64,000 nucleotides of DNA from a phage (PZ445440.1), one strand, 5' to 3'. Shown: positions 104-29,355, counted from the first letter of the stretch. The notes: generated by a model not told the origin, from the letters alone. Made by a program: numbers and translations.

Positions 104-475
104 TTATTTGATTTTTGTCCACTTAGCTGAATCAATAACACCTTTTGCTTTAATCTTCTCGATTAATGACTCTGCGCGATTTCTGGCATTTTCGTACCAT
201 ACAACATCTTCAGAGTAACCAGTTTCTTCATCTTCGTAAGTTTTAGAACGAATACAGCCATAAACTGTAGAATTCAGACGGTAAATTTCACCGGTGAAAA
301 AGTTTTCGATTTCGATATAATAACAAAAATCGTCTGAAGGGCCATCAGGAGTTGTACAATAAACCACATCACCTTGAACTGAACGAACCATCCACTGTAA
401 CTCGTTAACAACTTGAGATTTATATCCATCATGGTCACGGCATTTAATTGTAGCATTTAAATTGATAATGTTCAT
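104..475 (-). CDS. hypothetical protein (123 aa)
   Basis: ORF track; member of the tightly packed minus-strand early cluster downstream of rIII; no recognisable motif. Confidence 0.45.
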   Translation of the reverse strand: MNIINLNATIKCRDHDGYKSQVVNELQWMVRSVQGDVVYCTTPDGPSDDFCYYIEIENFFTGEIYRLNSTVYGCIRSKTYEDEETGYSEDVVWYENARNRAESLIEKIKAKGVIDSAKWTKIK

Positions 476-17883: not shown

Positions 17884-18801
17884 TCAGAATTCATTAATTA
17901 CACTTGTTAATTTAGAAAGACCCGATTTTACAAAGTATGAATAAATCTTGCCTTTAGGTTGTGGTTTATACGAGTTATAATACTCTATAATGGTTGAAGC
18001 AATATTATCAGGGATATAATCAAAATCAATGAGAACCAAATTTTCTTGATACCGTTTATATTCTTCTGCACTTAATAATACTTCAGCTTGAGAACGGTCA
18101 TTGGCAATTGCTTCAATAATCGTTGTTTTCATGCTCGGAGTTCGTTCACCATCAACTCTGGTAAACCAGAAGTCGCCACGAACTCGAACAGATGCAACAC
18201 CATCTTTACGGTCGCCTTTAAGAATTTTAGTCATGCAATCAATTTCGGCAGAACCATTCTTAATTTTAACCCATTTTTTCTGTGGTGGCGACCACTGTTT
18301 AACGTTAGGGTATTTGTGTAATTGTGTAAAGTCGCCATCTGATGCAACAATACACACCTTATGACCAGCTAATGACAAATATTTAGTTAATACACCGATA
18401 TGGTCATCCGCTTCATATTTGTCAATATCCATTACAACGTATGGCATGTATTTCTTAATCTCATCAACAACTTGATGGAGTGCAGTAAAATATCCTTCCC
18501 AATCCCACTTTGAAGCTTCACGATCGGTTTTACGATTTTTCTTGTAATAGTAAGCAAAGTCACGTCGCCAATAACCTGAAGTAGCATTATCCATACACAA
18601 TACAAATTTTGTATAGCCTTGCCTACGGAACATCACTACGTTTTTACGAATTGAATTCAAGATTACATGGCGAACCATCGGAACAGTAATTTTATCGCCG
18701 TCTTCAAAGTTGTTTAATGCGGCTGCCAATGCAATGTTACTAAAGTCGGCAAGCGCAATACCTTCTTTGTAATCTTCATCCAACATCATTTCTAAATCCA
18801 T
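17884..18801 (-). CDS. rnh: RNase H (5'-3' exonuclease/FEN)
   Basis: 305 aa; near-identical to recalled T4 RNase H N-terminus (MDLEMMLDEDYKEG) and same length. Confidence 0.9.
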   Translation of the reverse strand: MDLEMMLDEDYKEGIALADFSNIALAAALNNFEDGDKITVPMVRHVILNSIRKNVVMFRRQGYTKFVLCMDNATSGYWRRDFAYYYKKNRKTDREASKWDWEGYFTALHQVVDEIKKYMPYVVMDIDKYEADDHIGVLTKYLSLAGHKVCIVASDGDFTQLHKYPNVKQWSPPQKKWVKIKNGSAEIDCMTKILKGDRKDGVASVRVRGDFWFTRVDGERTPSMKTTIIEAIANDRSQAEVLLSAEEYKRYQENLVLIDFDYIPDNIASTIIEYYNSYKPQPKGKIYSYFVKSGLSKLTSVINEF

Positions 18802-18879
18802 ATGAACCTCTTGTTCAGTTAGTCAACTTGGACTATAGTAACATACTAGTTCGAAAGCGTAAATAGTCTTTTACTCATT

Positions 18880-18887
18880 TATAAATA
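18880..18887 (+). promoter_or_regulatory. late promoter TATAAATA upstream of gene 34
   Basis: Exact octamer about 35 nt upstream of gene 34 start codon on plus strand. Confidence 0.6.
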
Positions 18888-18921
18888 GTAAAATAGAACA
18901 CATAATGATAAGAGGACTACC

Positions 18922-21900
18922 ATGGTTGACATCAAACGTAAGTTCAGGGCCGAAGACGGTCTTGACGCAGGCGGTGATAAGATAGTTAACGTTGCGCTTG
19001 CTGACCGCACAGTTGGCACCGATGGCGTGAACGTTGACTTTTTGGTGCAAGAAAACACCGTACAGAATTATGACGATACGCGCGCGTATACAAAAGATTT
19101 TATTGTTCTTTATGATAATCGTTTTTATCAAGCTTTAAGTGATATTCCAGCTCCGGCAGGCCCTTTCTCTTTGGCTAAATGGAAGGCAACTCGTACAGAT
19201 GCAGAATGGATTACAGTTCAAGGCGGAGATTTCCAATTATCAGTAGGTAACTCTATTGCGGTTGATACTTCAGCTGGCACTGATATTAATTTCACTTTGC
19301 CTCAAAATCCTTTAGATGGCGATACAGTTATTTTGTCTGATATTGGTGGTAGAGTAGGCTATGTAAAAGTTCAAATTACTGCAGAGGCTCAAAGTATTGT
19401 AAACTTTAGAGGACAACAGGTTCGTTCAGTTTTAATGACGCACCCAAAATCTAAAATGGTCTTCATTTTTAGCAACCGCCTATGGCAAATGTATGTTTCT
19501 GATTACGAACGTAATGCAGTCACAGTAACTCCTGCTACGCCGTATCAGGCGCAACCTAATGATTTTATCATTCGACGTTTTACATCAGCCGCTCCTATTA
19601 ATATTACATTGCCTCGTAATGCTAATAACGGCGATATTATTAATTTAGTGGATTTAGACAAATTAAACCCATTATATCACACAATTGTCAAAACTTACGA
19701 TGAAACAACTTCTATACGAGAAGCTGGTGTTCATGTAGCAGAAGGACGTAATACTGCGGAAGCATTCTTTGTTTATGATTCTGCCAATAGTTTATGGCGT
19801 GTTTGGGAAGGTGACCAGAAATCTCGTTTACGTATAGTTCGTAATGATACTGATTTACGCCCTAATGAAGAAGTTCTTGTTTTTGGAACTAATAATGATA
19901 CAATCTCGACGGTAAATCTTACTTTGCCTACAGATATTTTGTCTGGCGATACTGTTAAAATATCGTTGAATTATATGCGTAAAGGGCAAACTGTAAAAAT
20001 TAAAGCTGCTGAAGGCGATACAATTGCTAGCAGTATTTCTTTATTACAGTTCCCAAAACGTTCGGAGTATCCACCTGATGCACAATGGGTTTCTGTTAGT
20101 GAGCTGGAATTTAATGGTGATACTTCGTATGTACCTGTACTTGAGTTAGCTTATATAGAAGATTATTCATCTGAAACAAAATATTGGGTAGTTCAACAAA
20201 ACACCGTAACCGTTGAACGAGTCGATGCATCGAGCAATACAACTCGAGCTCGTTTAGGTGTTATTGCTCTTGCTTCTCAAGCGCAAGCAAATGTTGATTT
20301 AGAAAATGCTCCTGGTAAAGAACTGGCTATTACTCCGGAAACATTAGCAAATCGTACAGCAACTGAAACTCGTCGTGGTATTGCTCGTATTGCAACAACT
20401 GCACAAGTTAACCAGAATACCGATTTTGCATTCCAAGACGACTTGATTATTTCTCCTAAGAAATTGAACGAACGTACAGCAACTGAAACCCGTAGAGGTG
20501 TTGCTGAAGTTGCAACTCAGGCTGAAACTAATGCTGGAACAGATGATACCACTATTATTACTCCTAAGAAATTGGATGCCCGTCAAGGTTCTGAAGTTTT
20601 ATCTGGTATTGTAAAATACACATCTACGACTGGTACTACAGCTGCTACTATTCGTGGTAATGCTGGGACTAATGTTTATAACAAAGCCGTAGATAATTTA
20701 ACTATTTCTCCAAAGGCTCTTGACCAGTATAAAGCTACCCCTACTCAGCAGGGTGCAGTAATTCTTGCTATTGAAAGTGAAGTTATCGCTGGCGAATCAC
20801 AAGCAGGTTGGGCTAATGCTGTAGTGACCCCTGAAACTCTGCATAAGAAAACTTCTACTGATGGACGTATTGGTTTAATTGAAATTGCTACGCAAGTAGA
20901 AACTAACACTGGAACTGATTATACTAGAGCAGTAACGCCTAAGACGTTAAATGATAGGAAAGCTACGGAAGGATTATCTGGCATAGCTGAAATTGCTACG
21001 CAAGTTGAATTTGATACTGGAACTGATGATACTCGTATCTCGTCTCCACTGAAAATTAAAACTCATTTTGATTCTTCTGACCGTACCAGTGTTAATTCTG
21101 ATTCCGGACTTATTGAAGAAGGAACCTTGTGGAACCATTATACTCTTGATATTTCTAAAGCAAATGAAACACAACGTGGTACACTTCGAGTAGCGACCCA
21201 GGCAGAATCTAATGCAGGAACTTTAGATGATGTTCTTATTACTCCTAAAAAGCTTTTAGGGACTAAGTCCACTGAAACATCTGAAGGCGTAATTAAGGTT
21301 GCTACTCAGGCTGAAACTGTAACAGGAACTTCTGCTAATACTGCTGTATCACCTAAGAATTTAAAATGGATTGTTCAATCAGAACCGTCATGGACTGCTA
21401 CTACGGCAATTCGTGGATTCGTTAAAACTTCATCTGGTTCTATTACATTTGTTGGTAATGATACAGTTGGTTCAACACAATCTTTAGAATCATATGAGAA
21501 AAATAGCTATGCGGTGTCACCATATGAATTAAACCGTGTACTTGCTAACTACTTACCGTTGAAAGCTAAAGCAGCTGATAGTAATTTGTTAGATGGTCTA
21601 GATTCTCTTCAGTTCATCCGTAGAGACATCGACCAGACGGTTAATGGTTCTTTAAGTCTTACTAAACAGACCAACCTGAGTGCTCCTTTAGTATCTACAA
21701 GCACTGCTTCTTTTGGTTCCGAAGCATCTGTTACTCGTAGATTAACTCTTAATGACTCTAGCGGTTCCGAAATAGTTTTCACTAAAGGAACCCAATCTCT
21801 TAGTAATAAAGAGAATTTCGTTGTTAGAGCATGGGGTAATAGCGCTACAGATGGTGCCCGTGATACAGTATTTGAAGCGGGTGACGAAACCGGATACCAT

Positions 21901-22755
21901 TTCTATTCTCAGCGCGCTGCTGATAATAGAGTATCATTTAATATTAATGGAACACTTTATTCAACAGGTATTGTTTCTACAAATGGATTAAATGTTACAG
22001 GTGTTTCTACCTTTACAGGGCCTATTAGTGCTACAGGCGAAATTGTTTCTAGTTCTCCTATTGCATTCAGAGCTATTAACGGTAACTATGGTGTTATGCT
22101 TTATAATGCTGGTAACAGTTCTTATATTGCATTAACTAACTCAGGTGACCAGACCGGGACGTTTAATAACTTACGCCCGATCACGATTAACAACGCCACA
22201 GGCTTAGTTCGTCTTGACAATGGTGTTCAAATCACAAGTGGTGCAACAATAACTACCGGTGGGTTAACTGTAAATAACAGAATTATTTCTAACGGCGTTA
22301 AAACTGCCACTGTTTATACCGATAAACCAACAGCTTCTACTGTAGGTTTTTGGTCTATTGACATTAACGATTCTGCTGTATATAGCCAATTCCCTGGATA
22401 CTGGACGCGTGATAACAAAGGTAACCGTGACCAAGAAATTAAATATCCTGGTACTTTGACTCAATTTGGTAATAGCTTAGATTCGCTTTATCAGGATTGG
22501 ATTTGTTATCCTACAGGTGCAAATGGCGGTAGTATTCGTTATACTCGTACCTGGCAGAAAAATAAAGATGCTTGGACTTCATTTGCAATGGTATTTGATA
22601 GTGGCAACCCACCTTCACCTAGCGATGTCGGTGCTATCCCATCTGATAATGCTGTTATTGGAAACCTTACTGTTCGAGACTTCTTACAATTAGGAAATGT
22701 GAGAATTGTTCCAGACCCGGTTAACAAAACAGTTAAATTTATATGGGTTGAATAA
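18922..22755 (+). CDS. 34: long tail fibre proximal subunit gp34
   Basis: 1277 aa; colinear with recalled T4 gp34 including repeated TETRRG...ATQAE...TD...PKKL motifs. Confidence 0.95.
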   Translation: MVDIKRKFRAEDGLDAGGDKIVNVALADRTVGTDGVNVDFLVQENTVQNYDDTRAYTKDFIVLYDNRFYQALSDIPAPAGPFSLAKWKATRTDAEWITVQGGDFQLSVGNSIAVDTSAGTDINFTLPQNPLDGDTVILSDIGGRVGYVKVQITAEAQSIVNFRGQQVRSVLMTHPKSKMVFIFSNRLWQMYVSDYERNAVTVTPATPYQAQPNDFIIRRFTSAAPINITLPRNANNGDIINLVDLDKLNPLYHTIVKTYDETTSIREAGVHVAEGRNTAEAFFVYDSANSLWRVWEGDQKSRLRIVRNDTDLRPNEEVLVFGTNNDTISTVNLTLPTDILSGDTVKISLNYMRKGQTVKIKAAEGDTIASSISLLQFPKRSEYPPDAQWVSVSELEFNGDTSYVPVLELAYIEDYSSETKYWVVQQNTVTVERVDASSNTTRARLGVIALASQAQANVDLENAPGKELAITPETLANRTATETRRGIARIATTAQVNQNTDFAFQDDLIISPKKLNERTATETRRGVAEVATQAETNAGTDDTTIITPKKLDARQGSEVLSGIVKYTSTTGTTAATIRGNAGTNVYNKAVDNLTISPKALDQYKATPTQQGAVILAIESEVIAGESQAGWANAVVTPETLHKKTSTDGRIGLIEIATQVETNTGTDYTRAVTPKTLNDRKATEGLSGIAEIATQVEFDTGTDDTRISSPLKIKTHFDSSDRTSVNSDSGLIEEGTLWNHYTLDISKANETQRGTLRVATQAESNAGTLDDVLITPKKLLGTKSTETSEGVIKVATQAETVTGTSANTAVSPKNLKWIVQSEPSWTATTAIRGFVKTSSGSITFVGNDTVGSTQSLESYEKNSYAVSPYELNRVLANYLPLKAKAADSNLLDGLDSLQFIRRDIDQTVNGSLSLTKQTNLSAPLVSTSTASFGSEASVTRRLTLNDSSGSEIVFTKGTQSLSNKENFVVRAWGNSATDGARDTVFEAGDETGYHFYSQRAADNRVSFNINGTLYSTGIVSTNGLNVTGVSTFTGPISATGEIVSSSPIAFRAINGNYGVMLYNAGNSSYIALTNSGDQTGTFNNLRPITINNATGLVRLDNGVQITSGATITTGGLTVNNRIISNGVKTATVYTDKPTASTVGFWSIDINDSAVYSQFPGYWTRDNKGNRDQEIKYPGTLTQFGNSLDSLYQDWICYPTGANGGSIRYTRTWQKNKDAWTSFAMVFDSGNPPSPSDVGAIPSDNAVIGNLTVRDFLQLGNVRIVPDPVNKTVKFIWVE

Positions 22756-22763
22756 GAGGTTAT

Positions 22764-23888
22764 ATGGAAAAATTTATGGCAAGGTTTGGACAGGGATACG
22801 TCCAAACGCCGTTTTTATCGGAAAGCAATTCAGTTAGATTTAAGCTAAGTATAGCGGGTTCATGCCCGCTTTCAACAACTAATCCGTATATTTTGTTCCA
22901 AAACGAGCCTTTAGGGTTGCAGTCTTTTGGTATTGGACTAAATGTTAGGGTGATAAATCCGGAAAATGGAACTATAGTTGATAGTAAATTATACAATTTT
23001 GCGCCTACAAATAATGCAACTTCAGCTGCATTTATTTCGTTTGTTAATACATACGCAGATAATTTCATTTTCGCATTTATTTCCAATAACAAATTTAATT
23101 TGCCACCAGAAATAATTGAATGGTTTAAAGCTGCTGGGAGTTCAGTTATACCGTCAATTGAAGTTGCTAGTCTTGTTGATATTTCATATTCAGCGTTTTA
23201 TGTTTCAGGTAAAAATACTATTGCATTAGAACACATAAAATACAGTAATAAGAAAACAATTTCTGATTACGCAACTCCATTAGATATTGTATATGACTCT
23301 ATTGCTGATATAGGTGCTACCGGCTATCCTAGACGTACATATGAAGCTCTAGAAACGTTTTTATCTCCTGTTGGAGGAACTAACAATGAAATAAAAAGGA
23401 TGCCTACGTCATCCCTTGTTACTCCTATCGCAAACTATGGATTAAAGCCTACAGATTTTCTTTATTTGAAATTTCAATTAACGGCTGATGAAGAATTATT
23501 AGAGGAAGGAACCACAAGACTTTCAATTCGTTTCTTTAAGTCTCCATCTAGCTCTCCTATATCATCTAAAGATATAAACTTTGATGGAATTGCCGGGGAG
23601 TGGAAGCTATATGAAGAATACGTTGAAATACCAGCTGAAGCTGATGGCTTTACAGTATATTGTTACCGTACGGCCTCAGTCGGTCAAGGTGGACTAAGAA
23701 ATGTTATTTTCACTGAAGTATCATGTAACGGAAGTATAGCAAAACCCGCTGAGTTTGGTATAAACGGTATTCGTGTTAATTACATTGATGAATCATTAAC
23801 CGGTAATGATATAATGGACTTGCCTACTCAGTTATCTAACGACACAGGTAAGGTATTTGGGCAGGAATTTAAAGAGTACACAGAATAA
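22764..23888 (+). CDS. 35: long tail fibre hinge protein gp35
   Basis: 374 aa; N-terminus MEKFMA.FGQGYVQTPFLSESNSVR as in T4 gp35. Confidence 0.9.
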   Translation: MEKFMARFGQGYVQTPFLSESNSVRFKLSIAGSCPLSTTNPYILFQNEPLGLQSFGIGLNVRVINPENGTIVDSKLYNFAPTNNATSAAFISFVNTYADNFIFAFISNNKFNLPPEIIEWFKAAGSSVIPSIEVASLVDISYSAFYVSGKNTIALEHIKYSNKKTISDYATPLDIVYDSIADIGATGYPRRTYEALETFLSPVGGTNNEIKRMPTSSLVTPIANYGLKPTDFLYLKFQLTADEELLEEGTTRLSIRFFKSPSSSPISSKDINFDGIAGEWKLYEEYVEIPAEADGFTVYCYRTASVGQGGLRNVIFTEVSCNGSIAKPAEFGINGIRVNYIDESLTGNDIMDLPTQLSNDTGKVFGQEFKEYTE

Positions 23889-23890
23889 AG

Positions 23891-23906
23891 GAGACTTCGG
23901 TCTCCT
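23891..23906 (+). terminator. stem-loop GGAGAC-UUCG-GUCUCC + U-run after gene 35
   Basis: Hairpin oriented for plus-strand transcripts, followed by TTTT. Confidence 0.5.
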
Positions 23907-23913
23907 TTTCGCG

Positions 23914-23921
23914 TATAAATA
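23914..23921 (+). promoter_or_regulatory. late promoter TATAAATA upstream of gene 36
   Basis: Exact octamer about 27 nt upstream of gene 36 start; T4 has a late promoter at this position. Confidence 0.6.
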
Positions 23922-23947
23922 CTTTAATATTAATAAGGAGACACGAA

Positions 23948-24604
23948 ATGGCCGATTTAAAAGCCGGAAGTACAGTTGGTGGTTCCGTCATATGGCATCA
24001 AGGCAATTTTCCTTTAATGCCAGCTGGCGACGACATCCTATATAAAACATTTAAATTATACACCGAATATAACAAGCCAAAAGCGGCTGATAACGATTTC
24101 GTATCTAAAGCAAATGGTGGGACATATCTCAAAAAGGTAATCTTTAACGAAGGTATTTCAGTCAAAACAGCAGATGACCAAACGAATGGTATTTTTTCTG
24201 GTGGTGGTGACGCCGCGACATTCGACCAAACAAACATGGATATTGTTTCGTGGTATGGTATTGGGTTTAAATCATCTCAAGGTACAGGTGAAAGAACTGT
24301 TGTAATTGATACTCGCACCGGTAATATAGGTTCTAAAGGCGTTATTGAAGCATCTCAATTCAGAGCCACAACGTTAGCACCTTTAAATAATTACGACCTT
24401 ACTCGCAAAGATTATGTTGATAGTCAAATAAATACAGTTAATGCTAATGCAAACTCTAGGGTATCACGCTCTGGAGATATGATGACCGGCGCTCTAACCG
24501 CCCCAAACTTTTTCTCACAGAATCCTGCATCTCAACCCTCACATGTTCCACGATTTGACCAAATTGTTATTAAGGATTCTGTTCAAGATTTCGGCTATTA
24601 TTAA
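23948..24604 (+). CDS. 36: long tail fibre distal connector gp36
   Basis: 218 aa; strong identity to recalled T4 gp36 (MADLK.GST.GGSVIWHQGNFPL). Confidence 0.9.
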   Translation: MADLKAGSTVGGSVIWHQGNFPLMPAGDDILYKTFKLYTEYNKPKAADNDFVSKANGGTYLKKVIFNEGISVKTADDQTNGIFSGGGDAATFDQTNMDIVSWYGIGFKSSQGTGERTVVIDTRTGNIGSKGVIEASQFRATTLAPLNNYDLTRKDYVDSQINTVNANANSRVSRSGDMMTGALTAPNFFSQNPASQPSHVPRFDQIVIKDSVQDFGYY

Positions 24605-24612
24605 GAGGACTT

Positions 24613-27600
24613 ATGGCTACTTTAAAACAAATACAATTTAAAAGAAGCAAAACTGCAGGAGCACGTCCTGCCGCTTCAGTATTAGCCGAAGGTGAATTGG
24701 CTATAAACTTAAAAGACCGTGTACTTTTTACTAAAGATGACCAAGGAAATATTATTGATCTGGGTTTTGCTAAAGGCGGTAGTATTGACGGGAATGTTAT
24801 TCATACAGGTAATTATAACCAAACTGGCGATTATACTTTAAATGGCACCTTCACTCAGACAGGTAATTTTAATTTAACTGGTATTGCTCGAGTAACTCGC
24901 GATATTATTGCCGCTGGGCAGATTATGACTGAAGGCGGAGAACTTATTACAAAAAGTTCAGGTACGGCACATGTTCGTTTTTTCGATGGCAATAGCCGCG
25001 AACGTGGAATCATTTATGCCCCGGCTAATGATGGATTAACTACACAAGTACTTAATATCAGGGTTCAAGACTACGCCGCTGGTAGCGAAAGCACTTATGC
25101 ATTTTCAGGCAATGGACAATTTACTTCACCTGAAGTATCGGCATGGAAATCTATGTCAACTCCTCAGATTTTGACTGACAAAGTCATTACAGACGGGAAG
25201 AAGGCCGGTGATTACGACATCTATTCATTAGCAAATAATAATTCTAACACAGATAAAAATAATTTACGTGTCGTACGTACCGACCCGGCGGCCGCAATGC
25301 TCCATGAAATTTGTGAAAACAACGGCATCAGTTGGTATTCTGGTTCAACCCCTACTGATTATATGTTATCTTTTGCTTATTCCGGCGGTTTTCAAGCAGG
25401 CCATTCGATTGCAGTAGGTATGGAATCAGGGCCTATGACATATTCAACCTTAGGTAAAGGTTCTATTGTTCTTGGGGATAATGATACTGGATTTAAATGG
25501 CATCAAGACGGATATTATTTCAGTGTTAATAATGGAACAAAAACGTTTTTATTTGGTCCTAGCGAAACAACTAGCCTAAGAAAATTTGTAGCCGGATATT
25601 CTACTAATGGAACCGATTTAACTACTCCTCCAACTGAAAACTATGCTCTTGCTACTGTTGTGACATATCACGATAATAACGCGTTTGGAGATGGTCAGAC
25701 TCTTTTGGGATATTATCAAGGCGGTAATTATCATCACTATTTCCGTGGTAAGGGTACCACAAACATTAATACTCACGGCGGTTTGTTGGTTACTCCTGGT
25801 AATATTGATGTTATCGGCGGTTCTGTTAATATAGATGGTAGAAATAATTCTTCTACACTAATGTTTAGAGGCAACACAACAGGATACAGCTCGGTTGATA
25901 ATATGGATATTAAAGTTTGGGGTAATACGTTTGTTGATCCAAGCGGAGGTATCCGTAAAAACATTATGGAAATTTCTGATGCAACTAGCTGGATGAGCTA
26001 TATTCAAAGACTTACTACTGGCGAAGTAGAAATGAACGTTAATGGTTCATTTGAATCATCTGGTGTTACTGCTGGAGATAGAGGAGTTCACACAACAGGC
26101 GAAATTTCATCTGGTGCAGTGAATGCTCTTCGTATTTGGAACGCAGATTATGGAGTCATTTTTAGACGTTCAGAAGGAAGTCTTCATATTATTCCAACTG
26201 CTTATGGCGAAGGCAAAGATGGCGATATCGGTCCACTTCGTCCGTTTAGTATGTCTTTAGATACAGGTAAGGTCGTTATTCCTGACCTAGATTTGAGTCA
26301 TACAACTTTTGCTGAAAATGGTTTTATTAAATTCGGTGGGCATGGAGCAGGCGCTGGTGGTTATGACATTCAATATGCTCAAGCGGCTCCTATTTTCCAG
26401 GAAATTGATGATGATGCTGTAAGCAAATATTATCCTATTGTTAAACAGAAGTTTTTAAACGGTAAATCCGTTTGGTCTTTAGGTACCGAAATTGAATCAG
26501 GTACATTCGTTATTCATCATCTGAAAGAAGATGGTTCACAAGGCCATACATCAAGATTTAATATGGATGGTACTGTTAATTTCCCTGATAATGTTCTGGT
26601 CGGCGGTGATATTAACATGAAAGGCGTGATGACTTTTGACGCCGGACGTTTAGGATCACGAGATTATTTTAAATTTAACCATTGGGGTGATAGTAATAAT
26701 GCTCGTGATAACATCATCCAGTTAGAAGATAGTCAAGGCGCTCATTTTTCCACTGAACGTACTTTAGCGACAGGTGCAATTAAAACTCGTTTCTTTGGCG
26801 AAACATTTACTGATGGTACATTATACCTAAATCAGATGAATAATAGCTCTGAACGATTCCATATCAATAATTGGGGAAATTCAGAAGTTGGTCGCGCGGC
26901 GGTGGTGGAAGTCGGTGATTCCAAAGGTTATCACTTCTATACAGAACGCAGGACAGATAACAGTTTGACGTTTGATGTTGCTGGCACTTTTACCGTGCAT
27001 GGATCTAGCGGGATCACTATCAAAAACTCTGCTGGCGCTCGCCGCATCTGGTTTAAAGATGATAGCGAATCGGAAAAGGCTGTTATCTGGGCTACAGATG
27101 AGGGTATTTTACATATACGAAATAATTATGGGGGTTCATTTAGTCATCACTTCCAGGGTGCAATGATTCTAGCGGGAGAGCGTGTTCCATATAATAGTGA
27201 ATACGCTCTTATCCGTGGTAATATTTCCGGTGGTGCATGGGTAGACTGGCGAGATCGTCCGGCTGGATTGTTGGTAGACTGTCAGGACTCACGAAATCAA
27301 GCATATAACATTTGGAAAGCTACTCATTGGGGCGAACAGCACATTGCGGCGATGGGTGTTCATGCTGGTGGTGGTAATCCTCATGTTGTATTGCATGTGG
27401 GTGGGAGTGATTATGCATTTGGATTTAACGGTGATTTTACTGCTGGCGCTGCTGTATATTGTAACGACGTTTATATTCGTTCTGACCGTCGTCTGAAAAT
27501 TAATGTTGAAGACTACGAAGAGAATGCGGTAGATAAGGTAAATAAACTCAAAGTTAAAACCTATGATAAAGTTAAATCTCTTTCTGACCGCGAAGTTATC

Positions 27601-27834
27601 GGCCATGAGATTGGTATTATCGCACAGGATTTGCAAGAAGTATTACCGGAAGCTGTTAGCACTTCTAGTGTCGGATCTCAGGATAACCCAGAAGAAATTT
27701 TAACAATTTCTAACTCTGCTGTGAACGCGCTTTTAATTAAGGCCATTCAGGAAATGAGCGAAGAAATTAAAGAATTGAAAACGCCTCTCTTTACTAAAAT
27801 TGCTCGCAAAATTAGTAAATATTTTAAATTCTAA
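24613..27834 (+). CDS. 37: long tail fibre distal subunit gp37, T2-type with C-terminal intramolecular chaperone domain
   Basis: 1073 aa; N-terminus MATLKQIQFKRSK as in T4 gp37; C-terminal about 100 aa resembles self-cleaving chaperone domains of phage fibres/endosialidases; no His-rich T4-type tip. Confidence 0.9.
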   Translation: MATLKQIQFKRSKTAGARPAASVLAEGELAINLKDRVLFTKDDQGNIIDLGFAKGGSIDGNVIHTGNYNQTGDYTLNGTFTQTGNFNLTGIARVTRDIIAAGQIMTEGGELITKSSGTAHVRFFDGNSRERGIIYAPANDGLTTQVLNIRVQDYAAGSESTYAFSGNGQFTSPEVSAWKSMSTPQILTDKVITDGKKAGDYDIYSLANNNSNTDKNNLRVVRTDPAAAMLHEICENNGISWYSGSTPTDYMLSFAYSGGFQAGHSIAVGMESGPMTYSTLGKGSIVLGDNDTGFKWHQDGYYFSVNNGTKTFLFGPSETTSLRKFVAGYSTNGTDLTTPPTENYALATVVTYHDNNAFGDGQTLLGYYQGGNYHHYFRGKGTTNINTHGGLLVTPGNIDVIGGSVNIDGRNNSSTLMFRGNTTGYSSVDNMDIKVWGNTFVDPSGGIRKNIMEISDATSWMSYIQRLTTGEVEMNVNGSFESSGVTAGDRGVHTTGEISSGAVNALRIWNADYGVIFRRSEGSLHIIPTAYGEGKDGDIGPLRPFSMSLDTGKVVIPDLDLSHTTFAENGFIKFGGHGAGAGGYDIQYAQAAPIFQEIDDDAVSKYYPIVKQKFLNGKSVWSLGTEIESGTFVIHHLKEDGSQGHTSRFNMDGTVNFPDNVLVGGDINMKGVMTFDAGRLGSRDYFKFNHWGDSNNARDNIIQLEDSQGAHFSTERTLATGAIKTRFFGETFTDGTLYLNQMNNSSERFHINNWGNSEVGRAAVVEVGDSKGYHFYTERRTDNSLTFDVAGTFTVHGSSGITIKNSAGARRIWFKDDSESEKAVIWATDEGILHIRNNYGGSFSHHFQGAMILAGERVPYNSEYALIRGNISGGAWVDWRDRPAGLLVDCQDSRNQAYNIWKATHWGEQHIAAMGVHAGGGNPHVVLHVGGSDYAFGFNGDFTAGAAVYCNDVYIRSDRRLKINVEDYEENAVDKVNKLKVKTYDKVKSLSDREVIGHEIGIIAQDLQEVLPEAVSTSSVGSQDNPEEILTISNSAVNALLIKAIQEMSEEIKELKTPLFTKIARKISKYFKF

Positions 27835-27840
27835 CAACAA

Positions 27841-27855
27841 GGGGGAAATGCCCCC
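27841..27855 (+). terminator. stem-loop GGGGG-AAAUG-CCCCC after gene 37
   Basis: GC hairpin followed by TTT directly after gp37 stop. Confidence 0.4.
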
Positions 27856-27870
27856 TTTGGAGTATAAATT

Positions 27871-28650
27871 ATGGCAGTAGTTGGAGTTCCTGGCTGGATT
27901 GGAAGTTCAGCCGTAAATGAAACGGGTCAGCGCTGGATGAGTCAAGCAGCTGGTCAATTAAGATTGGGTGTTCCTTGCTGGATGAGTCAATTTGCAGGTC
28001 GCTCAAGAGAAATAATTCACACACTTGGAGCAGACCATAACTTCAATGGTCAATGGTTCCGAGATAGATGTTTTGAGGCAGGTAGTGCACCTATAGTGTT
28101 TAATATCACCGGAAATTTAGTATCATATAGTAAAGATGTTCCATTATTCTTTATGTATGGCGATACACCAAATGAATATGTTACTTTGAATATTCATGGT
28201 GGAGTTCATATGTGGGGACGAGGTGGTAACGGCACTGTAAACGGAAACCCAGGCACAAATGGCGGCGATGTAATCCAAAATGATATCGGCGGAAGACTTC
28301 GTATTTGGAACTATGGCGTTATTGCATCAGGTGGCGGTGGTGGTGGTGCAGTGTCATTACAGAATAGCTGGGCGCCAAATGCTACAGCAGGTGGCGGTGG
28401 CGGCAGACCATTTGGCCTCGGTGGTGGTGGCGTTAATTGGCCTGGCGGTAATGCTAGTTATGACGCCCCGGGCGGTGCCGGTTACACTTCCCAATTCGGC
28501 GGTGGTAATGGTGGCGATGCTGGGGGTCGGGGCGGAGATGGATGGGGTAATCACTTATCTAGATCTGGCGGTGGTGCTCCTGGCAGAGCAGTATTCGGAA
28601 GTTCACCGTCATGGGGTGCTACAGGCACAATCTACGGCTCCTGGATTTAA
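27871..28650 (+). CDS. 38: tail fibre adhesin gp38 (T2/T6-type, glycine-rich motifs)
   Basis: 259 aa; multiple poly-Gly motifs (GGGGGGA, GGGGG, GGGG, GGGNGG) separated by short variable segments, the architecture of T2-type receptor-binding gp38. Confidence 0.85.
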
Positions 28651-28668
28651 ACGATATTACCTCTCAAT

Positions 28669-28676
28669 TATAAATA
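28669..28676 (+). promoter_or_regulatory. late promoter TATAAATA upstream of holin t
   Basis: Exact octamer about 20 nt upstream of t start. Confidence 0.55.
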
Positions 28677-28695
28677 TTGATAAATGGGAGGTAAT

Positions 28696-29355
28696 ATGGC
28701 AGCACCAAAAGTATCATTTTCGCCTAGTGATATTTTATTTGGGTTGCTAGACCGCATTTTCAAAGATAACGCCTCTGGAAATATTCTTATTTCAAGAGTT
28801 GCTGTTGTAGTTCTTTTGTTCCTAATGGCACTAATATGGTACAAAGGGAATATTTTTATGGATTATTACGTGAGGTCGAAATATGATACTTACACAGAAG
28901 TAATTCAAAAAGAAAGAAATACACGATTTGAATCTGCGGCTTTAGAACAACTACAAATAGTCCACGTCACATCAAGGGCGGATTTTAGTTCGGTGTATTC
29001 TTTCAGACCTAAAAATCTAAATTATTTCGTCGACCTTATTGCGTATGAAGGTAAGTTACCTAGCACAGTAACTGAAAAATCTATGGGAGGATTTCCTGTT
29101 GATAAAACGACAGCAGAATATTCGGTCCATTTAAGTGGACTTCACTTTACTTCTAAAACAGATTTTGCTTTCTTACCTACAAAATCAAAAACTCCGGAAC
29201 TGGTGTATATGTATAGTTGTCCTTACTTCAATTTGGATAACATATATGCTGGAACTGTTTCTATGTATTGGTATAAGGGGTCGGATGTGTTAAATGAAGA
29301 ACGCTTGGCTGCAATATGCAACCAAGCAGCAAGGATATTAGGGCGGGCTAAATAA
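28696..29355 (+). CDS. t: holin T
   Basis: Track ORF trimmed to Met5 (MAAPK) behind GGGAGG RBS; 219 aa; near-identical to recalled T4 holin (single N-terminal TM plus large periplasmic domain). Confidence 0.9.
   Translation: MAAPKVSFSPSDILFGLLDRIFKDNASGNILISRVAVVVLLFLMALIWYKGNIFMDYYVRSKYDTYTEVIQKERNTRFESAALEQLQIVHVTSRADFSSVYSFRPKNLNYFVDLIAYEGKLPSTVTEKSMGGFPVDKTTAEYSVHLSGLHFTSKTDFAFLPTKSKTPELVYMYSCPYFNLDNIYAGTVSMYWYKGSDVLNEERLAAICNQAARILGRAK

Follow-up and report, generated by a model that had tools for sequence, protein, structure and literature searches.

The region of genes 37 and 38 of Escherichia phage ChristianSchoenbein (Bas46, Mosigvirus) almost certainly encodes the part of the long tail fibre that recognises the receptor, of the type known from phages T2, T6 and S16, in which a gp37 predicted to cleave itself is capped by an OmpF-targeting gp38. 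The analysis established the order of the genes, the domains and motifs of their products, how these are conserved, and their homology to structures already solved. The first-pass annotation of this DNA had proposed a gp37 with an intramolecular chaperone and a glycine-rich gp38 adhesin, and every element of that proposal held at the sequence level.

The whole stretch of DNA analysed (PZ445440.1, 64,000 nucleotides, hereafter the window) is that of Bas46 (MZ501056.1). ORF calling in the window gave the two reading frames listed in Table 1, and the GenBank record labels the same intervals as long tail fibre distal subunit Gp37 and adhesin tip Gp38. ORFs, Pfam matches and GenBank agree in placing gene 38 directly 3' of gene 37 and 5' of the holin gene t, with gp34, gp35 and gp36 encoded upstream, and the 4038-bp region differs from MZ501056.1 at one base. 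The module is an ordinary T2-type tail-fibre tip, whose annotation and receptor have already been published, and it holds no novelty; its worth is that of a well-defined textbook case, with little value for discovery. Another reading frame overlaps gene 38 (28280-28750, 156 aa), an expected by-product of GGN-rich codons.

Table 1. Features of the gene 37-38 region of Bas46, in window coordinates.
Feature	Position	Strand	Basis
Gene 37, long tail fibre distal subunit precursor, 1073 aa	24613..27834	+	ORF; PHROG 1699 'long tail fiber protein distal subunit', E=0; GenBank bas46_0079
Predicted mature gp37, residues 1-956, ending in strand DVYIR (putative gp38 docking tip)	24613..27480	+	SDxRxK position; S16/fPS cleavage-site literature; no HxH
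gp34-like trimerisation domain of gp37, residues 449-546	25957..26250	+	Pfam Gp34_trimer, E 1.2e-8; PDB T4 gp34 chains 4uxe/5nxf, E ~1e-12
Exchangeable distal gp37 cassette, residues ~666-1073, plus intergenic spacer	26609..27869	+	blastn, megablast, loci compared
gp37 codon 811, CGC (Arg) in the window, CAC (His) in MZ501056.1 and all 9 cassette relatives	27043..27045	+	Sequence comparison
C-terminal intramolecular chaperone (IMC), residues 957-1073, 117 aa, predicted release by autoproteolysis	27481..27831	+	Pfam Peptidase_S74; 6f45_A alignment; conservation
SDRRLK, Ser957 predicted nucleophile (P1'), Lys962 predicted general base	27481..27498	+	Sole SDxRxK; 12/12 invariance
G+C-rich stem-loop between gene 37 stop and gene 38 Shine-Dalgarno (GGAG, 27859-27862)	27838..27859	+	MFE -14.7 kcal/mol
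Gene 38, fibre-tip adhesin, 259 aa	27871..28650	+	Pfam GP38, Gp38_N; PHROG 2056; PDB 9v85, 6f45_D; GenBank bas46_0080
gp38 N-terminal gp37-attachment domain, residues 1-42, W9/W22/W37	27871..27996	+	Pfam PF21721; alignment; Trp role from S16 literature
GRM1 GRGGNG, residues 116-121	28216..28233	+	5/6 columns invariant
HVS1, residues 122-130	28234..28260	+	1/9 columns invariant, mean pairwise identity 0.45
GRM2 GGGGGG, residues 154-159	28330..28347	+	6/6 invariant
HVS2, residues 160-173	28348..28389	+	0/18 columns invariant, identity 0.34
GRM3, residues 174-185	28390..28425	+	10/12 invariant
HVS3, residues 186-211	28426..28503	+	1/34 columns invariant, identity 0.41
GRM4, residues 212-221	28504..28533	+	5/10 invariant, identity 0.71
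HVS4, residues 222-233	28534..28569	+	0/15 invariant, identity 0.42
GRM5, residues 234-243	28570..28599	+	7/10 invariant
Conserved gp38 C-terminal end, P246/W248/G252/I254/Y255/G256 invariant	28600..28647	+	Alignment

The distal half of gp37 departs from that of T4. By blastp, residues 1-636 alone align with T4 gp37 (T4 residues 1-743, 34% identity), and beyond T4 residue ~743 no homology to the Bas46 protein was found. T4 gp37 has eight HxH motifs, seven of them within residues 883-998, whereas Bas46 gp37 has none, and its C-terminal ~150 residues are accordingly free of the HxH iron-binding repeats of the T4-type tip; nor was the T4 gp37 tip chain among the matches of a PDB search with gp37. 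The earlier statement that gp37 lacks the His-rich T4 tip is therefore correct. Both phages have the gene order 36-37-38-t and a homologous N-terminal two-thirds of gp37, and several relatives' GenBank records call gp38 an 'assembly catalyst/chaperone', all of which would suit a T4-type arrangement with the gp37 C-terminus as the adhesin and gp38 as an assembly chaperone absent from the virion. Such an arrangement is hardly conceivable for Bas46 and was rejected: besides the missing tip homology and HxH motifs, T4 gp37 has no S74 domain, the 183-aa T4 gp38 is unrelated and gave no blastp match to Bas46 gp38, and the latter finds its matches among adhesins, both as families and as crystal structures. 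The name 'chaperone' was inherited from the annotation of T4.

In place of a T4-type tip, gp37 ends in a Peptidase_S74 domain (PF13884; residues 957-1015, E 1.2e-14, 54.7 bits against a Pfam cut-off of 22 bits, profile positions 1-57 of 58). The motif SDxRxK occurs once in the protein, as SDRRLK at residues 957-962, and from there to the C-terminus there are 117 aa, close to the ~100 aa first estimated for an autoproteolytic chaperone. The Ser-Lys dyad expected of such a domain is likewise present in the sequence, Ser957 and Lys962 being invariant in 12/12 aligned gp37 C-termini, with R, C, S or G at residue 960. The motif lies 99-117 aa from the gp37 C-terminus in T2, T6, M1, FL33 and Bas47 (99-113 aa in T2 and T6), and is missing from T4. 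Moreover, the PDB search aligned the gp37 C-terminus with the crystallised S16 gp37 construct (6f45_A) and gave a distant match to the chaperone domain of MYRF (7dc3, E 0.012), which fits the same superfamily.

Bas46 gp37 is thus predicted to be cut between Arg956 and Ser957, releasing the 117-aa fragment. The context of the site is DVYIR^SDRRLKI; its DVYIR^SD agrees with the published sites of the fPS phages (predicted, DVYIR^SDGRLKI) and of S16 gp37 (documented, DLNVS^SDRRIKK). One could suppose that the S74 domain stays uncleaved in the mature fibre and has a structural role there, but we regard this as highly improbable, given the invariance of the dyad and the fact that the IMC (96-100% identical among the cassette relatives) is 74-75% identical to those of T6 and M1, far better conserved than the adjoining mature tip at just 23-43%. 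In addition, cleavage of gp37 and its capping by gp38 are documented both in S16 and in T2/T6, and in S16 cleavage is the step that exposes the docking surface for gp38. The predicted release of the chaperone has a parallel in the endosialidase-type IMCs (PF13884), which also have Ser...Lys at the start of the domain and are C-terminal in a trimeric fibre. In a fibre of the Bas46 type, unlike the endosialidase type, release would additionally create a docking site for a separate adhesin; endosialidase tailspikes are not known to carry a capping protein of this kind.

The second gene encodes this putative cap. Residues 1-42 of gp38 match Pfam Gp38_N (PF21721; E 1.4e-20, 73.4 bits) and residues 47-259 match GP38 (PF05268; E 2.3e-83, 279.8 bits), the cut-off being 25 bits for both families. 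Like the Peptidase_S74 match of gp37, these scores greatly exceed the cut-offs, and the gp38 matches, including those to crystal structures given below, are far beyond chance. The gp37-binding domain that the first-pass annotation had named as a point to check is therefore present, and its W9, W22 and W37 are invariant in an alignment of 8 adhesins; in the S16 structure, Trp 'prongs' of gp38 dock on gp37. Glycine makes up 65 of the 259 residues (25%), and 52 of the 149 in residues 111-259 (35%), with runs of G6, G5, G4, G3 and G3. Following the definition of Trojet et al. (2011), in which five conserved glycine-rich motifs (GRMs) separate four hypervariable segments (HVSs), the same alignment showed 50-100% invariant columns in the five GRMs and 0-11% in the four HVSs. 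The initial description of gp38, as a protein of 259 aa with poly-glycine motifs between variable segments, was accurate in each respect.

The label 'T2-type' attached to the module was apt for its architecture but not for its nearest relative. An alignment with T2 and T6 found SDxRxK in gp37 of both and a gp38 with the same five GRMs and four HVSs. However, Bas46 gp38 is 68-70% identical to those of T6 and M1 (68% for T6, whose receptor is Tsx) and 51.5% identical to that of T2 (receptors FadL and OmpF), and the HVSs of T2 and T6 are both unrelated to those of Bas46.

A single-sequence AlphaFold2 model of gp38 was unusable (mean pLDDT 31.3, pTM 0.17), and the fold therefore rests on homology to crystal structures. 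The matches were to 9v85 (E 1.6e-73, residues 38-258) and 6f45_D (E 5.5e-48), implying that gp38 would adopt a polyglycine type II helix sandwich fold. The former, which is the best solved-structure match, is the gp38 receptor-binding domain of PP01 and shows a polyglycine type II helix lattice that Bas46 gp38 is predicted to share (PDB 9V85; Terasaki et al. 2026, PMC12892980). PP01 binds O157 OmpC via loops D and E, and the matching Bas46 segments differ in sequence. The S16 gp37-gp38 complex (PDB 6F45; Dunne et al. 2018) resembles the Bas46 module in its S74 chaperone (cut at ...S^SDRRIKK) and in a gp38 with N-terminal Trp prongs, and its single gp38 and polyglycine sandwich with distal loops are features that Bas46 would share. 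It differs from Bas46 in targeting OmpC, in its divergent gp38 loops and in the sequence before the cleavage site, apart from the last five residues.

From these comparisons a sequence of events may be proposed. The trimeric gp37 fibre would fold with the aid of its own C-terminal chaperone (residues 957-1073). After trimer formation, Ser957, activated by Lys962, would cut the Arg956/Ser957 bond and the 117-aa chaperone would leave, exposing a hydrophobic tip that ends in DVYIR. One gp38 would then dock on this tip via its N-terminal domain (residues 1-42, with Trp9, Trp22 and Trp37), and its four hypervariable segments would loop out distally to bind OmpF, a porin of the outer membrane. Reversible binding to OmpF would trigger the baseplate, and the short tail fibres would next bind the LPS inner core.

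Host-range data of the kind envisaged in the first-pass annotation are already available for Bas46, for which the BASEL S5 Table gives OmpF as primary receptor and the LPS deep core as terminal receptor (Maffei et al. 2021, PMC8594841). OmpF dependence was also shown experimentally for Bas47, FL33/FL34 and RB51, whose full-length gp38 is 95.0%, 98.1% and 91.5% identical, respectively, to that of Bas46. Within the specificity domain (residues 116-259) Bas47 differs by R220W only and RB51 by L183I only, while FL33 differs at four HVS3 residues (Y197L, D198T, A199S and G202S), which account for four of the five differences between its gp38 and that of Bas46. We infer that the hypervariable loops of gp38 contact OmpF. 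The attachment domains are less uniform: 10 of the 13 differences between Bas47 and Bas46 gp38 fall within residues 6-36, RB51 has yet another N-terminal variant, and Bas47 gp37 is merely 60% identical to that of Bas46. The partner gp37 thus differs as well as the attachment domain, and one specificity domain is found together with attachment domains and fibre tips of several kinds.

The near-identity of the RB51 domain also suggests that 'OmpF only' may be too simple, because that phage is reported to need OmpF, FhuA and a full-length LPS core. The adhesin might recognise more than OmpF: FhuA, TolC or sugars of the LPS core could act as co-receptors or take the place of OmpF as primary receptor, and host range would then not be set by OmpF alone. 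A minor tolC effect in FL31/33/34 and the need for an intact inner LPS core, seen in every Mosigvirus of the BASEL collection that was tested, are in line with such a broader recognition. However, the BASEL table lists OmpF as the single primary receptor and ascribes LPS dependence to the terminal receptor, that of the short tail fibres, and we consider the broader recognition unlikely.

Between the two genes, a hairpin of differing sequence occupies the corresponding position in each of the phages compared (9/9). A scan for sigma-70 promoters was uninformative, with 17 sites against 17.3 expected. Exact late-promoter motifs were found at 18880, 23914 and 28669. The sequence TATAAATT before the gene 38 ATG resembles the T4 late promoter (TATAAATA); it was not counted, as it is too near the start codon for an mRNA with a Shine-Dalgarno sequence.

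Over 64 kb, the window differs from MZ501056.1 by two bases only, both of them nonsynonymous A-to-G changes in genes of the distal half-fibre. These substitutions, absent from the deposited record, are S128G in gp36, just upstream, and H811R in gp37. Both might be adaptive, having arisen under selection while the phage was propagated or experimentally evolved, a tentative idea towards which we are inclined to be sceptical. If it is true, residues of the shaft and hinge, a long way from the gp38 tip, would tune how a Mosigvirus that targets OmpF adsorbs or deploys its fibres.

The pattern of exchange extends to the distal part of gp37. The cassette that comprises it has no nucleotide match by blastn in the sister phage Bas47, and by megablast has counterparts of 89-99% identity in three phage genera. 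Across three genera, one OmpF-type specificity domain occurs with no fewer than three different attachment domains and gp37 tips, which shows the shuffling of host-range cassettes among T-even phages and provides an example useful for engineering host range.

The 4038-bp region carrying genes 37 and 38 was identified by megablast as part of Escherichia phage ChristianSchoenbein (MZ501056.1), a Mosigvirus that the BASEL collection lists as Bas46; GenBank labels the two genes 'long tail fiber distal subunit Gp37' (bas46_0079) and 'adhesin tip for distal long tail fiber Gp38' (bas46_0080). The boundaries proposed in the first-pass annotation coincide exactly with two plus-strand ORFs, placed in the canonical T-even long-tail-fibre operon, whose other members were named accordingly by Pfam and PHROGs. 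What that annotation described was confirmed, and its reading is supported. The module is already known: it is annotated, its structure is understood via close homologues, and its receptor has been assigned experimentally.

Features of the long-tail-fibre region (window positions; gp38 motifs in residues)
Feature	Position	Strand	Description
gp34	18922-22755		Pfam/PHROGs
gp35	22764-23888		Pfam/PHROGs
gp36	23948-24604		Pfam/PHROGs
Difference 1	24329		gp36 codon 128, AGT Ser to GGT Gly (S128G)
Gene 37	24613-27834	+	1073 aa
Difference 2	27044		gp37 codon 811, CAC His to CGC Arg (H811R)
Hairpin 37/38	27838-27859		G+C-rich stem-loop, -14.7 kcal/mol
Gene 38	27871-28650	+	259 aa
Glycine-rich motifs of gp38 (five)	116-121, 154-159, 174-185, 212-221, 234-243		50-100% invariant
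Hypervariable segments of gp38 (four)	122-130, 160-173, 186-211, 222-233		0-11% invariant, mean pairwise identity 0.34-0.45
Holin t	28684-29355		Pfam/PHROGs; ORF called mechanically

Exact copies of the T4 late-promoter motif TATAAATA precede genes 34 (at 18880), 36 (at 23914) and t (at 28669). As the last copy lies at 28669, the GenBank start of holin t at 28696 (MAAPK...) is favoured over that of the mechanical ORF at 28684 (MGGNMAAPK...). In their GenBank notes, bas46_0076 (18922-22755) and bas47_0077 of the sister phage Bas47 are called 'long tail fiber proximal subunit Gp37'; position and Pfam matches (Gp34_trimer, Gp34_2nd) identify bas46_0076 as gp34, and the public label is an annotation slip. 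The proximal hinge connector gp35 has a weak Pfam match at residues 58-131 to ILEI, the interleukin-like EMT inducer (30.2 bits, cut-off 27), an unexpected fold-family link.

The absence of the His-rich T4 tip from gp37, noticed at first reading, proved correct, since no HxH motif was found in the whole protein, the blastp alignment with T4 gp37 is restricted to residues 1-636 (34% identity), and a PDB sequence search returned no T4 gp37 tip chain. T4 gp37 itself has eight HxH motifs, seven of them within residues 883-998. The chaperone-like end of roughly 100 residues was likewise borne out: Pfam Peptidase_S74 matches residues 957-1015 (54.7 bits, cut-off 22), the C-terminus can be aligned to the crystallised S16 gp37 construct (6f45_A), and the only SDxRxK motif, SDRRLK at 957-962, begins 117 residues before the end. 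The gp37 proteins of T2, T6, M1, FL33 and Bas47 also carry one such motif each, 99-117 residues from the end, whereas T4 gp37 has none. The expected Ser-Lys dyad, Ser957 and Lys962, is invariant across 12 aligned gp37 C-termini, and the chaperone is far better conserved relative to T6 and M1 (74-75% identity) than the adjacent mature tip (23-43%). Published cleavage sites are DLNVS^SDRRIKK in S16 and, as predicted, DVYIR^SDGRLKI in Yersinia fPS phages (PMC7917993); the Bas46 counterpart is DVYIR^SDRRLKI. Because motif, conservation and published sites agree, we strongly infer that gp37 would be cut between Arg956 and Ser957, and the reading in which gp37 stays uncleaved and retains the chaperone was rejected.

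Farther upstream, gp37 residues 449-546 (25957-26250) match Pfam Gp34_trimer (E 1.2e-8) and crystal structures of T4 gp34 (E ~1e-12); a homologous trimerisation module is thus common to the two half-fibres, proximal and distal. The spacer from the stop codon of gene 37 to the Shine-Dalgarno of gene 38 contains a hairpin found at the same place, with different sequence, in all nine phages compared, T4 included, with TTCG loops in several; it is conserved in structure rather than sequence. Candidate roles are mRNA stability, translational coupling or attenuation.

Glycine accounts for 25% of the adhesin gp38 and for 35% of its residues 111-259; the protein's glycine runs are six, five, four, three and three residues long. 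Its Pfam matches are GP38 (E 2.3e-83) and Gp38_N (E 1.4e-20), and it also matches the crystal structures of the PP01 gp38 receptor-binding domain (9v85, E 1.6e-73) and of S16 gp38 (6f45_D, E 5.5e-48). Alignment of Bas46 gp38 with seven adhesins (FL33, Bas47, RB51, T6, M1, AV119 and T2) revealed the classical layout of glycine-rich motifs and hypervariable segments, as anticipated from its poly-glycine pattern. The label 'T2-type' holds for the architecture but not for the nearest relative, as identity is higher to M1 (70%) and T6 (68%) than to T2 (51.5%). No similarity was detected between the gp38 proteins of Bas46 and T4, and a T4-type tip, with the end of gp37 as adhesin and gp38 as chaperone, was rejected. 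Trp9, Trp22 and Trp37 of the attachment domain (residues 1-42) are invariant among the eight adhesins. As these residues and the gp37 dyad are present, neither of the two absences that would contradict the first-pass annotation is encountered at the sequence level.

The host-range result that the annotation called for is already in print: the BASEL S5 Table gives OmpF as the primary and LPS (deep core) as the terminal receptor of Bas46. In the specificity domain (residues 116-259), Bas46 differs from Bas47, whose OmpF dependence was confirmed by complementation, only by R220W; from RB51, which is reported to require OmpF, FhuA and the full LPS core, only by L183I; and from the OmpF-dependent FL33, where the tolC effect is minor, at four positions, all in the third hypervariable segment. 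There is a modest possibility that FhuA, TolC or LPS also contribute to recognition. Taken as a whole, the T2/S16 mechanism is very likely the one that applies to Bas46. Trimerisation of gp37 would be aided by the chaperone, the Ser957/Lys962 dyad would cut at the Arg956-Ser957 bond and lay bare the DVYIR tip, and a single gp38 would dock via its Trp prongs; hypervariable loops carried on a polyglycine sandwich would then bind OmpF, after which the short tail fibres would bind the LPS inner core.

When the 64,000 positions of the window were compared one by one with MZ501056.1, only two differed; both are A-to-G substitutions, nonsynonymous, within genes for the distal half-fibre. His811 of gp37 is kept in all nine relatives that share its distal cassette (last third of gene 37 plus the spacer), and Ser128 of gp36 is common to Bas47, FL33 and T2. 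Since both changes fall in gp36 and gp37, which make up 6.1% of the window (probability for two random changes ~0.004), the sequence may come from a propagated, passaged or evolved/adapted stock with fibre mutations.

Bas46 and Bas47 are members of one species. Their nucleotide identity is about 95% over 18801-26608 and from 27870 on, but no nucleotide match was found across the cassette (26609-27869), and identity between the two gp37 proteins is only 60%. Of the 13 differences between their gp38 proteins, ten fall in the attachment domain, between residues 6 and 36; the docking domain of gp38 therefore appears to travel, and to be inherited, with the tip of the gp37 fibre. The Bas46 cassette occurs at 89-99% identity in three genera: Mosigvirus (SQ17, phiC120), Tequatrovirus (OES_C-2, ZN18, RB32, IME340) and Gaprivervirus (P479). 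This distribution, not new in kind, is consistent with the known modular exchange at the tail-fibre locus.
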